Source of the DNA: an uncultured Chloroflexia bacterium
GTDB taxonomy: Bacteria > Chloroflexota > Limnocylindria > Limnocylindrales > CSP1-4
Length of the DNA: 64,000 nucleotides
Direction: 5' to 3'
Assembly: GCA_963768655.1 (NCBI GenBank)
Contig: CAVYIM010000003.1
Span: forward strand, 704,001 to 768,000
Shown: in pieces, positions 50,522 to 56,788 of the stretch
Position numbering within the stretch: position 1 is the stretch's first letter
How the letters are laid out: each line of letters opens with the position of its first letter
Notes under the pieces: model-generated
The model's database searches: none
The model's input: the letters and a program-made list of their open reading frames with translations, nothing else
What the model was told of the DNA's origin: nothing
Program-made: the position numbers and the translations under genes

Positions 50522-51805
50522 TCACACCGCGACGAACGACGTCACCAGGAGTACCAGCGACAACACGACGAGCAGGCCGGTGCCGATCCAGCCGATTGCC
50601 GACAGCACTCGCCCGCTCGCGAGCGGTCCCATCAGTTCTCGGTTCGATGCCAGGCGCATGACGAAGACCAGCACGAACGGCAGCAGCAGGCAGTTGATGA
50701 CCTGAGCCGTGAACATCACCTGCACGAGCAGGCGCGGCGGCACGAGCAGGATGAACAGCCCGGCGAAGGCAACGAAGAAGATCATCAGACCGTAGAAGGC
50801 CGGTGCCTCGCGCAGGCGCCAGTCGACGCCGGTCTCCCAGCCGAAGGCCTCGCAGGCGGAGTAGGCGCTCGTCAGCGGCACGGTACCGAGGCCCAGGAAC
50901 GACGCGGCGAGCAGGCCCACGGCAAAGAGGACTGTGGTCTCGCCACCAGCAAGCGGCTGCAGGGCGCGCGCGATCTGCTGGATCGCATCGGGAGAGGTCG
51001 TGTCGATGTGGATGCCAGCCGTGTACACGGCTGCGGCGCAGGCGATGATGATGAATGCGCTGATGAGGTTCGTGAGGAGCGCGCCCAGCCCAACATCCAG
51101 CCGCTCGCCGACGAGATCCTCCGGACCGAGCCGCTTGTCCGCCACGTAGGACTGGATGAACGCCTGGCCCCAGGGCGTGATCGTGGTCCCGACCGTGGCC
51201 ACCACTGTGAGCCAGTACAGGCTCGAAGAGTCCAGGGCAGGTACGACCATGGAGTGAACCGCGTGGCCCCAGTCCGGATGGGCCAGGAGCGCAGAAACGA
51301 AATACGAGAGAGAGACTCCGGCGCCTACGGCAACGAACAGGTATTGGACCTTGATGTAGCTGCCGCGGGTCAGCAGCAGGACTACGACCGTCGCGGCGAG
51401 AAGCGCGCTGATCCAGTTGGGCACGCCGAAGAGGCCGAGAGCCGCGCCGCAGCCGGCAAACTCGGACACGATTGTGCCCACGTTGGCGATGAGCATGGTC
51501 ATGATCAGGAACGCTGCCCAGCGAACGCCGTACTTCTCGCGGACGATGCCGGCCAGGCCCTGGCCCGTAGCCAGTCCGAGCCGGGCGCCCACCTCCTGTG
51601 TGAAGAACAGCACGATCTGGCTGGCGAGAATGACCCACAGCAGCTCGTAGCCATATCGCACACCCGCCACGGAATAGGTGGAGATGCCGCCGGCGTCGTT
51701 GTCGGCGAAGCCGCTCACGAGCCCCGGGCCAAGGACACCCAGGATCGCGGCCAGGCGGACCCGGTTTACCGCGCGAGGGGTCAGAGACAGGACCGGAGCC
51801 CTCAC
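50522..51805 (-). CDS. NRAMP-family transporter, NRMT (Mg2+-type) signature
   Basis: LGPGL..GFADNDAGGISTY (not DPGN) and TVGTTITPWG; GTGA overlap with the upstream gene. Confidence 0.88.
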   Translation of the reverse strand: MRAPVLSLTPRAVNRVRLAAILGVLGPGLVSGFADNDAGGISTYSVAGVRYGYELLWVILASQIVLFFTQEVGARLGLATGQGLAGIVREKYGVRWAAFLIMTMLIANVGTIVSEFAGCGAALGLFGVPNWISALLAATVVVLLLTRGSYIKVQYLFVAVGAGVSLSYFVSALLAHPDWGHAVHSMVVPALDSSSLYWLTVVATVGTTITPWGQAFIQSYVADKRLGPEDLVGERLDVGLGALLTNLISAFIIIACAAAVYTAGIHIDTTSPDAIQQIARALQPLAGGETTVLFAVGLLAASFLGLGTVPLTSAYSACEAFGWETGVDWRLREAPAFYGLMIFFVAFAGLFILLVPPRLLVQVMFTAQVINCLLLPFVLVFVMRLASNRELMGPLASGRVLSAIGWIGTGLLVVLSLVLLVTSFVAV

Positions 51806-53079
51806 CGGTCCGGAGTCCCCGAGGTCCGCCCGAAGATGCGCGGAATCCTGATCCTGGCGGGCCGGGGCAGCAGCGTGTCGATGGCGTCGTCGACGGTCAC
51901 GATGCCTTCGAGGTGGCCATCGTCGTCAACGACCGGCACCGCCAAAAGGTTGTAGCGGGCCACGACCTCGGTGACCTCTTCCTGACCGGCGTCGGTCTTG
52001 ACCGCGACAGGCTCGGCGTACATGAAGGTGGAGATGCGCGTGCTCGGCTTGGCGACGATCAGGTCTCGCAACGACAGGACGCCGACCAGCTTGCCGGCCT
52101 CGTCGGTCACGTACACGTAGTAGATCGTCTCGGCGTTGGGCTCGAGCTCTCGCAGGCGGTCGATCGTCTGGGCCGCCGTCAGGCTGGCCGGCACGGCCAC
52201 GAACTCGGTCGTCATGATGCCGCCGGCCGTGTCCTCCGCGTAGGTCATGAGCTCCTGGACTTCCTGCGCCTCGTCCTTCTCCATCAGGCCGAGGATCTCC
52301 TCGCGGCTCTCGTCCGACAGGTCGGCCACGAGGTCCGCCGCCTCGTCCGGATCCATCTCCTCCAGGATGTCGGCGGCGCGGGCGGGCTCCAGGTCCTCCA
52401 GGATGTCCACCTGAGTCTCGGGTTCCATCTCGCCGATGGCATCGGCTGCCGCCTCGTCGTCCAGGGACGAGATCACGCCGACTCGGTCGTTGCGGCTGAG
52501 CTGGTCGATGATCGTCGCCAGGTCCGCCGGGTGGAGCTCCGCCAGGCCCTTGTGGGGGACTCGCAGCTTGACGCTGGCGATCGTTCGCTCCACCGGATCG
52601 ACGTCCTCCCAGTCGATGTACCGCTCGGGGACTTCGCGGTGTAGACCGCGGGCGAGCGTCCGCCATGGCCCCTCGATGCCGAGCCGGCGAAGCAGGCCGG
52701 ACGCGCCGACGTCCACGGCGACCAGATGCAGCGCGCCTTCGACCTCGTCGAGCCGGAGGTCGTTGACGCGGACTACCTTGCGGCCGTCGATGTCGACGAT
52801 CTGGCGGTCCATCAGATCACGCTTGAGGCGAATCTCGTTGGGCCGCTGGTGGAACTTGCTGATGTCGATCGCGGTCGTCTGCAACGTGGCGCCGGTTGAG
52901 TCCAGCGACGCCACCGACTGCCACGCAAGGAAGATCTCCCGGCCGTTGGTCCTGACGACTATGCCGGTCACGGGCGGATACCGATCGCCGATGGCGACGA
53001 TGAGGTCGGCGACGGTTCCGATCGGCTCGCCCAGCTTGTCACGCACAGGCCGGCCGATCGCCTGGCTCAGATAGAGCAT
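51802..53079 (-). CDS. Cytosolic MgtE-like protein (PRC barrels + MgtE_N + CBS pair), no TM domain
   Basis: DRQIVDIDGRKVVRVND, LHPADLA, TAGGIMTTE, YYVYV..LVGVLSLRDL, GIVTVDDA. ATG 53079 follows GAGGTG. Confidence 0.88.
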   Translation of the reverse strand: MLYLSQAIGRPVRDKLGEPIGTVADLIVAIGDRYPPVTGIVVRTNGREIFLAWQSVASLDSTGATLQTTAIDISKFHQRPNEIRLKRDLMDRQIVDIDGRKVVRVNDLRLDEVEGALHLVAVDVGASGLLRRLGIEGPWRTLARGLHREVPERYIDWEDVDPVERTIASVKLRVPHKGLAELHPADLATIIDQLSRNDRVGVISSLDDEAAADAIGEMEPETQVDILEDLEPARAADILEEMDPDEAADLVADLSDESREEILGLMEKDEAQEVQELMTYAEDTAGGIMTTEFVAVPASLTAAQTIDRLRELEPNAETIYYVYVTDEAGKLVGVLSLRDLIVAKPSTRISTFMYAEPVAVKTDAGQEEVTEVVARYNLLAVPVVDDDGHLEGIVTVDDAIDTLLPRPARIRIPRIFGRTSGTPDR

Positions 53080-53081
53080 GT

Positions 53082-53131
53082 GCCACCTCGACGGCGGGTC
53101 TGCGGACGGGGCCCGACCCGCCCGAGGTGGC
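53082..53131 (-). promoter_or_regulatory. RBS-sequestering hairpin of the mgtE-like gene
   Basis: On the minus strand GCCACCTCG-GGCGGGTC pairs with GACCCGCC-GT-CGAGGTGGC, which contains the SD just before the ATG. Confidence 0.75.
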
Positions 53132-53302
53132 GCGCGCCGCAATGGGCGCGAACCGCTTAGAGGGCGAAGCGGACCAGAGAGCGAATGTCGGCGCCCCGGG
53201 CGCCGCAGGTACTGGGTCCGGTCTCCACTGAGGGAGAGATCCTCCGAAAGCGTGTTGGAACGGGCCGTAAGGCGCGGTTACATGCGCCTTCGACCACGTC
53301 GG

Positions 53303-53332
53303 AGTTTAGCCCCGGGTATGGGCGAGGGTCAA
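53303..53332 (-). promoter_or_regulatory. Sigma70-type promoter for the mgtE-like/NRAMP operon
   Basis: TTGACC-N18-TAAACT on the minus strand. Confidence 0.7.
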
Positions 53333-53384
53333 CGCGAACCGCGTCCGGAGATGGTGAACGTAAGTACGATTGCCGCGGGCCCGG

Positions 53385-54866
53385 ATGTACCCGCACCATG
53401 AGAGGGTGCGAGACGTCCGTTTACGCGACGCTTTCAATGTGGGCTCGTGGCTCCGCTTTCGGGGGGACGGCAGTTCGCCCGGATTCGACACGCAATCGAT
53501 CTCGCTGACGTGGACGTTGCTCTCCGTCGCGATAGCGCTCCTTCTCGGGCAGGCGTTGGTCGGTTTCGTGGTGGGCCGAAACAGCCTCGCCGATCTCGCC
53601 CTGGCGATCGCGACCGCGCTGCTGGTGGCCTCGGCCGTTCTGAATGCCCGCGCCTCGGGCATTCGCGCGGAGAGACGCCACTCCGAGTCCGAGAGCTTCG
53701 GCCGGCTCCTCCAGGCTCTGTCGCGATCCGTGTCGCCGAACGCGGTCATCGAGGCCATCGTGCATGAGCTCGGCACGGCGACGCGGGCGGACCACGTGGC
53801 GGTCGTGCAGAAGCGGCCCGGCGGCACCGTCCTCGACGTGAGTTTCGTGTCGATGCTGCCGGGATCGCCGGCCTCGAACACCGTCATGCCCGTTGGGCAG
53901 CTGGCGCCCGTCGAGACGCGAAAGCTGCGCATCGCGCCGCGGCCGGCGAGCGGTTCGGCTCCCGACGCCGGCGGATCGGGCGGTTGGAACGAAGAGGCGG
54001 ACGACGCGTCGGCGCGCGGGCGCTCTCTGCACTGGCAGTCCCAGGCCGAGCGGCGTCCGACCGACGACGGCCTCCGGAGACGCGGCTGGCGGCCGCCGGA
54101 GTTCATCGCTCCCGTCCAGGAGGATGGAGTGAACGCCCGCGACGTGGCCAACCAGATCGCCCACCGATTGCGGGATGCGTACGGCCTTCGGAATACTCTG
54201 GCCGCGCCTCTGCTGGAAGGCGATTCGATCGTCGGGGCGATCGTCCTTTCGCGCCGCACCAGCGAGCCGTGGACGGACTCTTCGGTCCGGCTGCTGAACA
54301 GCGCGGCCGGCGAGACGACGGCGGCGCTGGCCAGGGTCTACTCGCACCAGGCCGCCGAGGCGGAGGCGCGCACCGACCAGCTGACGCAGCTGCCGAACCG
54401 GCGCTACTTCGACGAGTACTGCACGCTCGTAGCCAGCCGCCGGCGGGCCACCGACCGGGTCGCGATTCTGGCCGTCGACGTCGACCACTTCAAGCGCGTC
54501 AACGACATGTACGGGCACCAGATCGGCGACCAGGTCCTGCGAGCCATCGGCGACGCGATTCAGGCGTCGGTCCGCGGCGAGGATCTGCCGGCCCGCTATG
54601 GCGGCGAGGAGTTCATGGTCCTGCTGCGGAACCCGAGCGCCGGCGTGGCCCTGGAGATCGGCGAGCGGATACGCACCACGGTACGGGAGCTGGACCTCGT
54701 CGACGCGGGCGTGACGGATCGCGTAACGGTTTCGCTGGGAGTGGCGTCCGGGCTCGCCAGCGACGAGTCGATCTCGGAGATCGTGGAGCGGGCGGACCGG
54801 GCGCTCTACGCGGCCAAGCGCACGGGCCGCGACCGGGTTGTGGAGGCCTGGCCTTCGGAGGGGTGA
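53385..54866 (+). CDS. Diguanylate cyclase (2 TM + GAF-like + GGDEF)
   Basis: TDQLTQLPNRRY, DVDHFKRVND.YGHQIGD, RGED I-site, RYGGEEF. Start uncertain. Confidence 0.9.
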   Translation: MYPHHERVRDVRLRDAFNVGSWLRFRGDGSSPGFDTQSISLTWTLLSVAIALLLGQALVGFVVGRNSLADLALAIATALLVASAVLNARASGIRAERRHSESESFGRLLQALSRSVSPNAVIEAIVHELGTATRADHVAVVQKRPGGTVLDVSFVSMLPGSPASNTVMPVGQLAPVETRKLRIAPRPASGSAPDAGGSGGWNEEADDASARGRSLHWQSQAERRPTDDGLRRRGWRPPEFIAPVQEDGVNARDVANQIAHRLRDAYGLRNTLAAPLLEGDSIVGAIVLSRRTSEPWTDSSVRLLNSAAGETTAALARVYSHQAAEAEARTDQLTQLPNRRYFDEYCTLVASRRRATDRVAILAVDVDHFKRVNDMYGHQIGDQVLRAIGDAIQASVRGEDLPARYGGEEFMVLLRNPSAGVALEIGERIRTTVRELDLVDAGVTDRVTVSLGVASGLASDESISEIVERADRALYAAKRTGRDRVVEAWPSEG

Positions 54867-54894
54867 CGCCGCCGGCTGGGGCTACCATTCGGGC

Positions 54895-56788
54895 GTGGAG
54901 CCTTCGCCCTCAGCCGAGCCTTCGCCCTCAGCCGAGCCTTCGGCCAGGGTCGAGCTTTCGCCGGCCGCCCTTTCGAACGGCGAGCTGGCGCGCATCTTCC
55001 ATGAGATCGGCGACATGCTCGAAGTCAAGGGCGAGCTCGTCTTCAAGACCGTGGCCTACCACAAGGCAGCCGACGCGATCGCGCATTCGCCCGTGGAGGT
55101 TTCGCGCGCCTACCTGGACGGCCGGCCGCCGCGGATCCCGGGCGTCGGTGAGGCGATCGCGAAGAAGATCGAAGAGCTGGCCCGAACCGGCCACCTGGCT
55201 TTCTACGAGCGGTTGCGCGAGGAGGTGCCGCCCAGTCTGGTGGCGTTGCTGGAGATCCCCGGTGTCGGGCCGCGGACGGTCAAGCAGCTGCACGAGGAGC
55301 TGGCCGTCGAGACGCTGGACGATCTCCGGCGGGCGGCGGAGGCAGGCGCCCTGCGGTCGCTCAAGGGCATGTCGGCCAAGACGGAGGAACAGATCCTGGC
55401 CGGCATCGCGGCCCTGGAGACGCGCCAGGAACGGATGCGTCTGGGCCAGGCCGAGGCAATAGTCGAGACTCTTCTGGCCGAGCTCTCCGATGTACCGGGG
55501 TTGCGCTCGCTGACGCCGGCGGGGTCCTTCCGCCGCCGCCGCGAGACGATCGGCGACCTCGACCTACTGGCGGAGACCGATCGACCGGCCGAGCTGGTGG
55601 AGCGGTTCACCACTCTCGGATCGGTCGAGTCGGTGCTGGCCAAGGGGCCGCACAAGGCCGCCGTTCGTCTGCTGCGTGGGCCCCAGGTGGATCTGATGAT
55701 CATGCCGCCCGGGGAGGCGGGCACGTACCTGATCCACTTCACCGGGTCGAAGGAACACAACGTCCGGCTGCGCGGGATGGCCCGCGACCGCGGCTGGAGC
55801 CTCTCAGAGAAAGGCTATCTGCGGCTCAATGAGGAGGGCGAGCCGGCGCTGGGGGAGTCCGGCGAGGCGGCCGAGCTCCGAACCTTCCCGACCGAGGCGG
55901 ACGCCTACGGCTTCCTCGGCCTGCCTTTCATCGAGCCCGAACTGCGCGAGGATCGAGGCGAGATCGAGGCGGCGATCGCGGGGACGCTGCCCGTGCTCGT
56001 GGCCCGTACCGACCTGCGCGGCGATTGCCACAGCCACTCCGACTGGTCGGACGGAGTGCACTCGATAGAGCAGATGGCGCTGGCGGCGCGGCGGCGCGGC
56101 TACTCCTACCTGGCCCTCACCGACCACACCGTCAGCCTGGCGATCGCCCGCGGGCTGGATCTCGAGCGGGTGGAGCGGCAGCGCCGGATCGTGGCGGCCC
56201 TGAACGAGCGGTTCGCCCGCGAGGAGGCCGACGGCACGGCTCCACCGGAGACGTCGACTGAGGGCTTCCGGCTGCTGCACGGCTGCGAGCTCGAGGTCCG
56301 CGCCGACGCCACGCTCGACTACCCGGACGAGCTGCTGGCTCGCTACGACCTGGTCGTCGCCTCGGTCCACGTCGCCCGGCGTCAGACGCGCCAGCAACTG
56401 ACGGCTCGAACCCTCGCCGCCATCGGCAACCCCAACGTCGACATCATCGCCCACCCGGCCGGGCGCTACATCGGCAGCCGCGACGACCTCGATCTCGACT
56501 GGGACGCCGTCTTCGCCGAGGCCGCCCGGACCGGCACCGCACTCGAGCTGAACGGCTCGGACGAACGGCTGGATCTCTCGGACGTTCGAGCCCGGCGAGC
56601 TGCCGAGTTCGGGTGCGTCTTCGTGGTCGAATTCAGACGCTCACCGCACCGAGGAGCTGGACAACCTTCGTTGGGGCACCGCCATGGCCCGCCGAGCCTG
56701 GCTCGGGCCCGATCGGGTGATGAACACCCGCTCCCGCGCTGAGCTTCTGGACTGGGCCGCCGCGAAGCCGGGGCGGCTGCATCCATGA
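54895..56788 (+). CDS. polX: DNA polymerase X / PHP exonuclease, with a +1 frameshift at ~56630
   Basis: IPGVG HhH, GSFRRRRETIGDLD, HFTGSKEHN, HSHSDWSDG, TDH. The shifted frame restores (D/N)SDAH...VMNT and ends at the ATGA overlap 56785-56788. GTG 54895 is 6 nt after TACCAT. Confidence 0.9.
54898..54942 (+). repeat. 18-bp tandem repeat (2.5 copies) encoding EPSPSA at the PolX N-terminus
   Basis: GAGCCTTCGCCCTCAGCC x2 + GAGCCTTCG. Confidence 0.85.

Follow-up and report, generated by a model that had tools for sequence, protein, structure and literature searches.

We found a conserved regulatory leader in front of a putative magnesium transport operon in a 64,000-nt stretch of DNA (the window, to which all positions refer) from contig CAVYIM010000003.1 of an uncultured Chloroflexota bacterium of the class Limnocylindria. 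The leader lies on the minus strand and measures ~225 nt from its promoter to the ATG of the first gene at 53079. It carries a small upstream open reading frame (uORF) within a structured RNA whose 3' end is a hairpin enclosing the Shine-Dalgarno (SD) sequence of the operon. That this is a real, conserved and undescribed regulatory leader seems to us almost certain, and the pattern of sequence conservation indicates that the uORF is very probably translated and under selection. Whether the leader works as a ribosome-dependent translational attenuator of an NrmT-type operon, in the manner of MgtL or ermC, is in our judgment an evenly balanced question. A first-pass annotation of this DNA had suggested either a riboswitch or a ribosome-mediated attenuator; the attenuator is the reading best supported by the results given here, and the riboswitch is treated as its rival.

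The leader is conserved together with the gene that follows it. Orthologs of the first gene, which codes for a protein with PRC-barrel, MgtE_N and CBS domains, were found in 41 of 41 related genomes, and across the 22 congeneric loci that extend far enough upstream the promoter, the core CGCUUUCGGAGGAunUCUCCCUCAGUGGAGACCGGACCCAGUACC and the SD stem are all conserved, the hairpins between these blocks differing by paired changes and in length. A search with the 23-mer core allowing up to 3 mismatches matched 64 of 401 genomes of the order (17 of 44 genera), where it is practically single-copy, while the reversed pattern gave no matches in the same 401 genomes. The ortholog was located 137 to 177 nt downstream of the core in 30 of 30 fetched loci. 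A pattern scan over one genome per species retrieved 102 loci, nearly all from metagenome-assembled genomes (MAGs) titled Chloroflexi/Chloroflexota, Ca. Limnocylindrales or Limnocylindria. The gene is found downstream in 148 of the 149 core-bearing loci, all from MAGs of Ca. Limnocylindria, and the remaining locus ends at a contig edge. These 149 loci reduce to 109 distinct leaders, designated family f1, which are the basis of the uORF counts below.

The near-invariant core opens with the start codon of the uORF, which is GTG in all 109 leaders. A GGAG or GAGG word ends 12 nt upstream of the GUG in 94 of them and 9 to 13 nt upstream in every one. The frame set by this codon closes after 21 to 35 codons in 109 of 109 leaders, with TAA, TAG or TGA, mostly at the foot of the helix P1 (Table 1), and where the usual stop has been lost a replacement follows within a few codons. 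Read in frames 1 and 2, 43 and 49 of the 109 leaders, respectively, stay open as far as the main gene. In a structure-guided alignment of 73 sequences, the stretch between the GUG and the P3 3' strand falls into ten length classes (26, 47, 50, ... 71 nt), and in 70 of the sequences its length leaves a remainder of 2 on division by three; in leader L022, an exception, a compensating -1/+1 pair restores the frame, as judged by eye. The two flanking distances used as controls have no frame preference: from the -10 box to the GUG there are 29 length classes with remainders of 40/34/29, and from the uORF stop to the ATG 35 classes with remainders of 43/37/29. The G+C content by codon position is 0.78/0.67/0.85 in the uORF and flat in the spacer (0.80/0.81/0.81), the two genes of the operon having values of 0.71/0.41/0.90 and 0.67/0.46/0.86.

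The first-pass annotation had instead read a leaderless peptide of 46 amino acids from a GTG at 53297. That ORF exists and ends at the same TAA (53159-53157), but only its last 23 codons (53228-53157) are conserved. Congeners have CGG, CTG, ACG or GCG in place of the GTG at 53297, and only ~2 of the 109 leaders have a start in frame at 23 codons before the core GTG. Together with the lack of frame preference between the -10 box and the core, this speaks against the leaderless start; the conserved one is the internal GUG with a GGAGG of its own.

The peptide of family f1 begins with M-E-T-G-P-S-T/P and is nearly invariant through M-E-T-G-P-S. All 109 leaders have E or D at residue 2 and P at residue 5, and residues 3 to 7 are otherwise small (T/N, G, S/R, T/P). 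Sequence and length are free to vary over the C-terminal two thirds, and the third codon positions have no excess of variation, which argues that selection acts on translation in frame and on stopping rather than on the product. On this comparison of sequences, the start codon, the upstream GGAGG, the frame and the stop of the uORF are under selection and its amino acid sequence mostly is not. A functional micro-protein of 21 to 35 amino acids, co-expressed with the transporter from an mRNA that the structure would merely stabilise without any switch, would also account for the conserved frame, start and stop and for the N-terminus. We find it scarcely credible, considering the free C-terminal part, the missing third-position excess, a peptide that is not hydrophobic and an N-terminal conservation that overlaps RNA pairing; besides, nearly every leader has its main SD occluded, so that some opening mechanism would be needed.

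Related uORFs occur in two other families. In the sister family f4, 20 of 25 leaders have a related core, GUGGACGCCGGAyCCwGUAg, followed by a uORF of 14 to 30 codons in the same frame (VDAG[PS]...A), mostly terminating at GCC UAG. In family f2, 4 of 16 leaders have ten-codon uORFs of the form GGAGG-N12-14-GUG GAC (G/A)AC, the remaining leaders being ~45 nt long. The piece most widely common to f1, f4 and f2 is GGAGG-N12-17-GUG GAn; the part shared most widely is therefore the initiation region with an acidic codon after it.

Table 1. Positions of the elements of the leader and of the two operon genes in the window.
Feature	Position	Strand	Description
Promoter-like site	53303..53332	-	TTGACC 53332-53327, 18-nt spacer, TAAACT 53308-53303
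P0, 5' hairpin	53263..53295	-	Right after the predicted transcription start; minimum free energy (MFE) fold; with AAGGCGC/GCGCCTT and the non-conserved leaderless GTG (53297)
P1 5' strand, GGAGGA	53240..53245	-	Pairs with CCUCU 53163-53159; doubles as SD-like word of the uORF
P2, CUCC/GGAG	UCUCC 53237-53233, with GGAGA in the core	-	Has the start codon at its edge
uORF, VETGPSTCGARGADIRSLVRFAL	53157..53228	-	GUG and 22 further codons, then TAA 53159-53157
Near-invariant core, GUGGAGACCGGACCCAGUACC	53208..53228	-	Holds the start codon, the P2 3' strand and region 1
Region 1, CGGACC	53220-53215	-	P3 5' strand; uORF codons 3-5
P3a, CGGCGCC/GGCGCCG	53189..53205	-	Variable-length hairpin inside the uORF; 4 of 6 pairs changed on both sides
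Region 2, GGUCCGCUUCGCC	53163..53175	-	P3 3' strand, then conserved C-rich stretch; complementary to region 3
P4 hairpin, CGCGCC...GGCGCG	53133..53150	-	Between the uORF stop and the anti-SD; MFE fold
SD-sequestering hairpin	53082..53131	-	Made up of the four elements listed next
Anti-SD, GCCACCUCG	53131-53123	-	SD hairpin
Region 3, GGCGGGUCGGGCC	53122-53110	-	SD hairpin
GACCCGCC	53100-53093	-	SD hairpin
SD of the first gene, CGAGGUGGC	53090-53082	-	Under a 9+8-bp stem
First gene	51802..53079	-	425 aa; ATG at 53079; PRC-barrel, MgtE_N and two CBS domains (Pfam)
Second gene, NRAMP of NRMT/NrmT type	50522..51805	-	Pfam Nramp 1.4e-83; GTG start

The RNA around the uORF is strongly folded. The MFE of the 243-nt leader is -125.4 kcal/mol, vs -103.8 +/- 5.0 kcal/mol for 200 shuffles (z -4.33, with 0 shuffles as good), and the hairpins listed in the first-pass annotation (AAGGCGC/GCGCCTT, TCTCC/GGAGA, CGGCGCC/GGCGCCG, CCGCTT/AAGCGG and the 9+8-bp SD stem) are all found in the sequence. 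The fold that best fits the core is a three-way junction of P1, P2 and P3, with P3a inside P3. In a model-guided alignment of the core from 73 sequences, 89.5% of the cells are paired, vs 38-52% when the partners are slid. Eight core pairs are changed on both sides, a count reached by 1 of 500 shuffles, and none of the 500 reached either the 29 double-changed cells or the covariation score; the bulk of this signal sits in P3a. Among the other helices, P1 (GGAGG/CCUCU) is 84% paired with double changes at 2 pairs, its register shifting between genera, and P3 (CGGACC/GGUCCG) is 94% paired yet invariant. P4 also appears in the RNAalifold prediction, where two pairs have 1 and 3 double changes, and the arms of P0 covary between congeners as seen by eye in the alignments, with no formal count. 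From the 22 congeneric leaders RNAalifold also predicted long-range pairing of the P2 loop (CAGUGGAG) with codons 2-5 of the main gene; this helix was discarded, its complement being missing by eye in other genera.

Several leaders depart from this architecture. L189 (genome G442, family f4) lacks P3a entirely, P3 being closed by a 12-nt loop, and its uORF has 14 codons; it retains the core, the GCC UAG stop and the SD hairpin, and by its sequence it is a natural minimal version of the leader. An additional hairpin, GCCCGG...CCGGGC, is inserted at the P1 junction, between CCUCU and AGCGG, in L019, L114, L138 and L023. In the first three the uORF runs in frame through the inserted hairpin (ending in …EPGLPG, …APGLPG and …EPGQPG, respectively) and stops just before AGCGG, while L023 has retained the earlier stop.

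The main SD is base-paired to a conserved CCACC, confirming the hidden SD of the first-pass annotation. The SD word, GAGGTGG (GAGGUGG in the RNA), is found in 99 of 109 f1 leaders and in all 25 f4 leaders. A CCACC lies 18 to 75 nt upstream of it in 79 of 109 f1 and 22 of 25 f4 leaders, vs 301 of 2180 shuffles, and the mean pairing probability of the word is 0.79 in f1 and 0.85 in f4. The cells of this hairpin, which corresponds to the 3:4 pairing of an attenuator, are 86.6% paired, without covariation. Scoring SD occlusion on the 4-nt GAGG (49 of 106 leaders) or on the length of the complementary run (barely above shuffles) gave weak results, and the GAGG-only measure was superseded because the true SD word is GAGGUGG. 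A second copy of CGGACC lies within and beside the 5-nt loop of the hairpin, in region 3. Region 3, 15 to 19 nt before the ATG, is the best duplex partner of region 2 in 72 of 108 leaders, the mean energy of the 2:3 duplex being -21.2 kcal/mol vs -17.4 kcal/mol for shuffled region 2. In a 47-sequence alignment, 79.2% of the cells of the 2:3 pairing are complementary, vs 35-62% when slid.

The gene context ties the leader to magnesium. The NRAMP protein has DAGG and TTIT at the DxxG and TxxA/T signature sites when its translation is aligned by eye rather than structurally, and DxxG on helix 1 with TxxA/T on helix 6 is the signature of the Mg2+-transporting NRMT clade given by Ramanadane et al. 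(PMC8806188). NrmT genes mostly adjoin a gene for an MgtE cytosolic domain, and many such operons have an M-box, according to Shin et al. (PMC4072509). Here the NRAMP signature residues are found with an MgtE_N/CBS gene directly upstream, whose product is soluble, with no membrane part. The NRMT signature and the MgtE-like neighbour assign the leader by homology to a Mg2+-transport operon of NrmT type, as the first-pass annotation had supposed. The stop of the PRC/MgtE_N/CBS gene overlaps the GTG of the NRAMP gene (GTGA, 51802-51805, minus strand), which at the sequence level suggests translational coupling of the sensor-like protein and the transporter.

In the proposed attenuator, the uORF spans region 1 (CGGACC, codons 3-5) and, in its last codons, region 2 (GGUCCG and the C-rich tail). 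Region 2 could have two alternative partners: region 1, giving P3, and region 3 (GGCGGGnCGGACC), which forms the inner 5' arm of the SD hairpin. With the uORF free of ribosomes, or with a ribosome at its stop, the 1:2 and 3:4 pairings would form and the SD would be shut. A ribosome pausing or aborting early on the M-E/D-x-G-P codons would cover region 1, leaving region 2 free to capture region 3 during transcription, and the SD would stay open. Each of the conserved elements would thereby find a role. P1 would pair the SD of the uORF with the sequence just upstream of the uORF stop, the start codon lying at the edge of P2. The N-terminal EPDP of MgtL causes abortive translation that is stronger at low Mg2+ and favoured by small residues, as reported in a preprint (bioRxiv 10.1101/2021.02.02.429294). 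Since the operon would import Mg2+ and acidic/proline N-termini like that of MgtL abort more at low Mg2+, low Mg2+ is the likeliest signal, and low cytosolic Mg2+ would switch the operon on. The identification of Mg2+ as the signal, linked to the leader by the gene context and the MgtL-like N-terminus, we hold to be plausible rather than probable.

A number of results weigh against this mechanism. Masking a ribosome-sized stretch in equilibrium folding, whether at codon 5, codon 9 or the stop, opened the SD in none of 108 leaders (opening being a rise in unpaired probability of more than 0.3 in the equilibrium partition function), so that any switch would have to be kinetic. The covariation of the 2:3 pairing is marginal, its score being matched by 19 of 500 shuffles and its count of double-changed pairs being no better than shuffles (303 of 500). 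The uORF stop lies 45 to 106 nt from the main ATG, a distance that makes direct coupling of the uORF to the gene unlikely. The 12-nt spacing from GGAGG to GUG is long, and both elements are base-paired (in P1 and P2) in the folded leader. Residues 2 to 7 of the f1 peptide include only 2 or 3 D/E/P, mostly 2, fewer than in the EPDP of MgtL. The column entropy of the uORF by codon position is 0.73/0.93/0.79, without third-position excess, and the rare codons GGA and AGU are invariant in the core; the constraint on the core is therefore one on the RNA, as would also be expected of an aptamer. As to the signal, PMC4072509 describes an NrmT relative, also next to an MgtE-like gene, whose substrate seemed to be Mn2+ and not Mg2+.

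An aptamer is what a ligand-sensing riboswitch would require. The three-way junction would then bind Mg2+, Mn2+ or a metabolite, with P1 (GGAGG/CCUCU), P2, P3, a conserved internal loop CnAGUACC and the junction CCCGCC as its parts, and the uORF would be auxiliary, like that of the Salmonella mgtA leader, or incidental. On binding, the ligand would lock P3 and P1 in place, so that the SD hairpin could form; in its absence the inner arm would be taken up by the P3 3' strand, leaving the SD free. This is consistent with the near-invariant core, constrained even at synonymous positions, with the variable length of P3a and its 4 covarying pairs, with the strong folding z-score and with the conservation of both the occluded SD and the complementary switching stretch. 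There is precedent as well: the M-box, not found in the 31 genomes searched here, controls the same type of operon elsewhere (PMC4072509, in part), and the Mycobacterium M-box acts through a translational platform with a uORF, as far as the available text of PMC12810186 goes. A riboswitch leaves unexplained, however, why frame conservation is confined to the uORF, why the in-frame stop is present in 109 of 109 leaders and why the G+C content has a codon-like periodicity. The piece shared most widely among f1, f4 and f2 is the initiation region and not the junction, P3a may be missing, the 3' part differs between f1 and f4, and no known aptamer was matched in Rfam. We regard a riboswitch as the less likely answer, though a serious rival. 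It would be compatible with an attenuator operated by the uORF, as in the Salmonella mgtA leader. The M-box and uORF of M. tuberculosis would be a second such case (PMC12810186, available part).

A protein could also operate the leader, if a repressor bound its GGA words (GGAGGA, GUGGAGA and the two copies of CGGACC); CsrA or, by feedback, the PRC/MgtE_N/CBS protein of the operon would be the candidates. The second CGGACC, in and next to the loop of the SD hairpin, fits this idea, the genome of the window codes for a CsrA homolog (74.8 bits; G000:C4:593667-593819, plus strand; L216) and the product of the first gene has ligand-sensing CBS and MgtE_N domains. However, CsrA is patchy, being present in 15 of 31 genomes of the genus and in 3 of the 13 that are at least 90% complete, and several complete genomes that bear the leader lack it. 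No RNA-binding domain was recognised by Pfam in the operon's protein and the frame signal of the uORF would go unexplained, which makes regulation by a protein very unlikely.

The leader matched none of the known RNA families. With Rfam 15, 0 matches reached the gathering score in the whole 64-kb window. At E<=10 the only ones were two weak matches on the plus strand (rpfG, 14.8 bits; P10, 12.3 bits), and nothing was found on the leader (minus) strand between 52950 and 53500. No family of the 4227 in Rfam, yybP-ykoY and NiCo/czcD included, reached threshold in the window or in 12 related loci, in agreement with the first-pass annotation, which recognised no M-box, yybP-ykoY or NiCo consensus and had called for this comparison. 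The M-box (RF00380) was not found in the window, in the 12 related loci or in any of the 31 genomes searched, the controls in B. subtilis and L. lactis being positive. In the literature, with subscription journals and bioRxiv supplements outside the search, we found no work on riboswitches in Limnocylindria and none that connects NrmT with a leader peptide. Leader-peptide attenuators of Mg2+ importers are already known as a kind of device; new are the RNA family, the architecture (a uORF across a three-way junction, with SD occlusion as output) and the phylum.

The closest of the known devices is MgtL, in the mgtA leader of Salmonella and E. coli. Both are short uORFs in the long structured leader of a Mg2+ importer, translation being predicted here from the selection on frame, and both have an acidic/proline N-terminus, M-E-P-D-P-T in MgtL and M-E-T-G-P-S-T/P (f1), M-D-A-G-P/S (f4) or M-D-D/N (f2) here. 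In both, alternative stems would be set by the progress of the ribosome, as we propose for this leader. However, the two are unrelated in sequence and belong to different phyla, and the uORF described here is longer (21-35 codons), extends across most of the conserved structure and has a lower D/E/P content. The output of the mgtA leader is Rho-dependent termination, whereas here it is apparently SD occlusion.

The arrangement of the pairings resembles that of ermC/cat translational attenuation and of the four-segment trp attenuator. In these systems a leader peptide lies over segment 1, the ground state has the 1:2 and 3:4 pairings, and a ribosome stalled on segment 1 leads to the 2:3 pairing. 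The leader peptide over segment 1, the 1:2 and 3:4 pairings and a downstream SD within 3:4 are predicted here too. Unlike in those systems, 3:4 is far more stable than 2:3 and masking segment 1 leaves the SD closed at equilibrium; the uORF also covers segment 2, and there is no antibiotic or run of amino acid codons.

The M-box (RF00380) fronts the same type of operon, an NrmT gene with an MgtE-cytosolic-domain gene (PMC4072509, available sections), and the expected logic, off at high Mg2+, is the same. Its size, core sequence and architecture are different, and its aptamer has no reading frame. The M. tuberculosis pe20 leader, an M-box with a conserved uORF, is also a Mg2+-related structured leader with a translational platform in a high-GC bacterium. 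There, however, a bona fide M-box is the sensor and the uORF lies downstream of the aptamer, to judge from the available part of PMC12810186, whereas here the uORF is inside the structure and no known aptamer is present. A wider proposal, which we consider somewhat unlikely, is that Limnocylindria would have a Mg2+ sensor with the ribosome as detector, evolved independently of the enterobacterial MgtL and replacing the M-box. Pausing or abortion of the ribosome at low Mg2+, early in the acidic/proline-headed uORF within the three-way junction, would redirect the folding of the nascent RNA and keep the SD of the importer operon accessible, and the RNA core may itself bind Mg2+, giving a device with two inputs.

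NrmT-type transporters and their MgtE-like partner genes are known to be under M-box control in Firmicutes; to our knowledge, the control of NrmT operons in phyla without an M-box has not been described. The leader is a concrete candidate for such control, with more than 100 distinct sequences in two, possibly three, families of a little-studied class of Chloroflexota that is abundant in soil and freshwater. If the uORF is read as we propose, Mg2+ sensing through a ribosome on a leader peptide would have been reached more than once and would not be an enterobacterial peculiarity, and the natural variants would be useful for finding which features of the peptide or the RNA matter. The leader is also a caution for motif searches, since a conserved structured RNA may conceal a reading frame that is visible only by counting lengths modulo three.

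A covariance model of the leader (R1) finds one copy in the genome of the window (93.8 bits). In a class-wide sample it matched 21 of 44 genomes of family f1, 0 of 6 of f2, 0 of 49 of f3 and 2 of 50 of f4; one of the two f4 matches immediately precedes the ortholog, and the second is spurious. The match in genome G412, far from the operon, was rejected as false. R1 gave nothing significant in the f2 leaders, nor in five pattern hits from outside the phylum (L064, L090, L115, L150 and L159), which are chance matches. Genome G043 has neither gene nor RNA, and in G060 the gene is present behind a short leader of ~50 nt. In f4 the ortholog was found in 27 of 61 genomes, a tally that includes two unpublished genomes whose loci were left out of the leader set.

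Twelve of the 16 f2 leaders (L026, L028-L030, L217-L220 and L222-L225), from small genomes of ~1.1 Mb, consist of only ~45 nt after a conserved GCGTAGACT -10 box and have neither uORF nor core. From these sequences, the long leader seems to have been lost or never gained in these relatives. The match to the ortholog is fragmented in G008:C24 (4 pieces), G003:C2 (2) and G015:C6 (2), and G060:C7 has one in-frame TGA; frameshifts, errors of assembly or decay of the copies may be the cause.

The promoter proposed in the first-pass annotation, TTGACC-N18-TAAACT on the minus strand, is present, and it is the sole promoter-like site between 52950 and 53500 (shuffle mean 0.1). Relatives conserve it: TTGACCC-N17-CTAmACT is retained in 21 of 22 congeneric leaders, and a -10-like word lies upstream of the core in 103 of the 109 distinct leaders. 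In small shares of wetland metatranscriptomes, contigs of relatives include the core and the junction between the SD and the coding sequence, and two X4 metatranscriptome contig pieces cover 53042-53174 and 53145-53227. As contigs, these are uninformative on transcript start or end, strand and translation, and the gap at 53282-53343 carries no meaning.

On the other side of the same intergenic region of ~290 nt, a gene for a diguanylate cyclase with GAF and GGDEF domains (53370-54866, plus strand) is transcribed divergently. Also on the plus strand, an ORF from 54838 has a short tandem peptide repeat at its beginning (54880-54930; PSPSAE twice, then PS), after which the ORF translation, the sole basis for this judgment, looks like a protein of the DNA polymerase X/PHP type.

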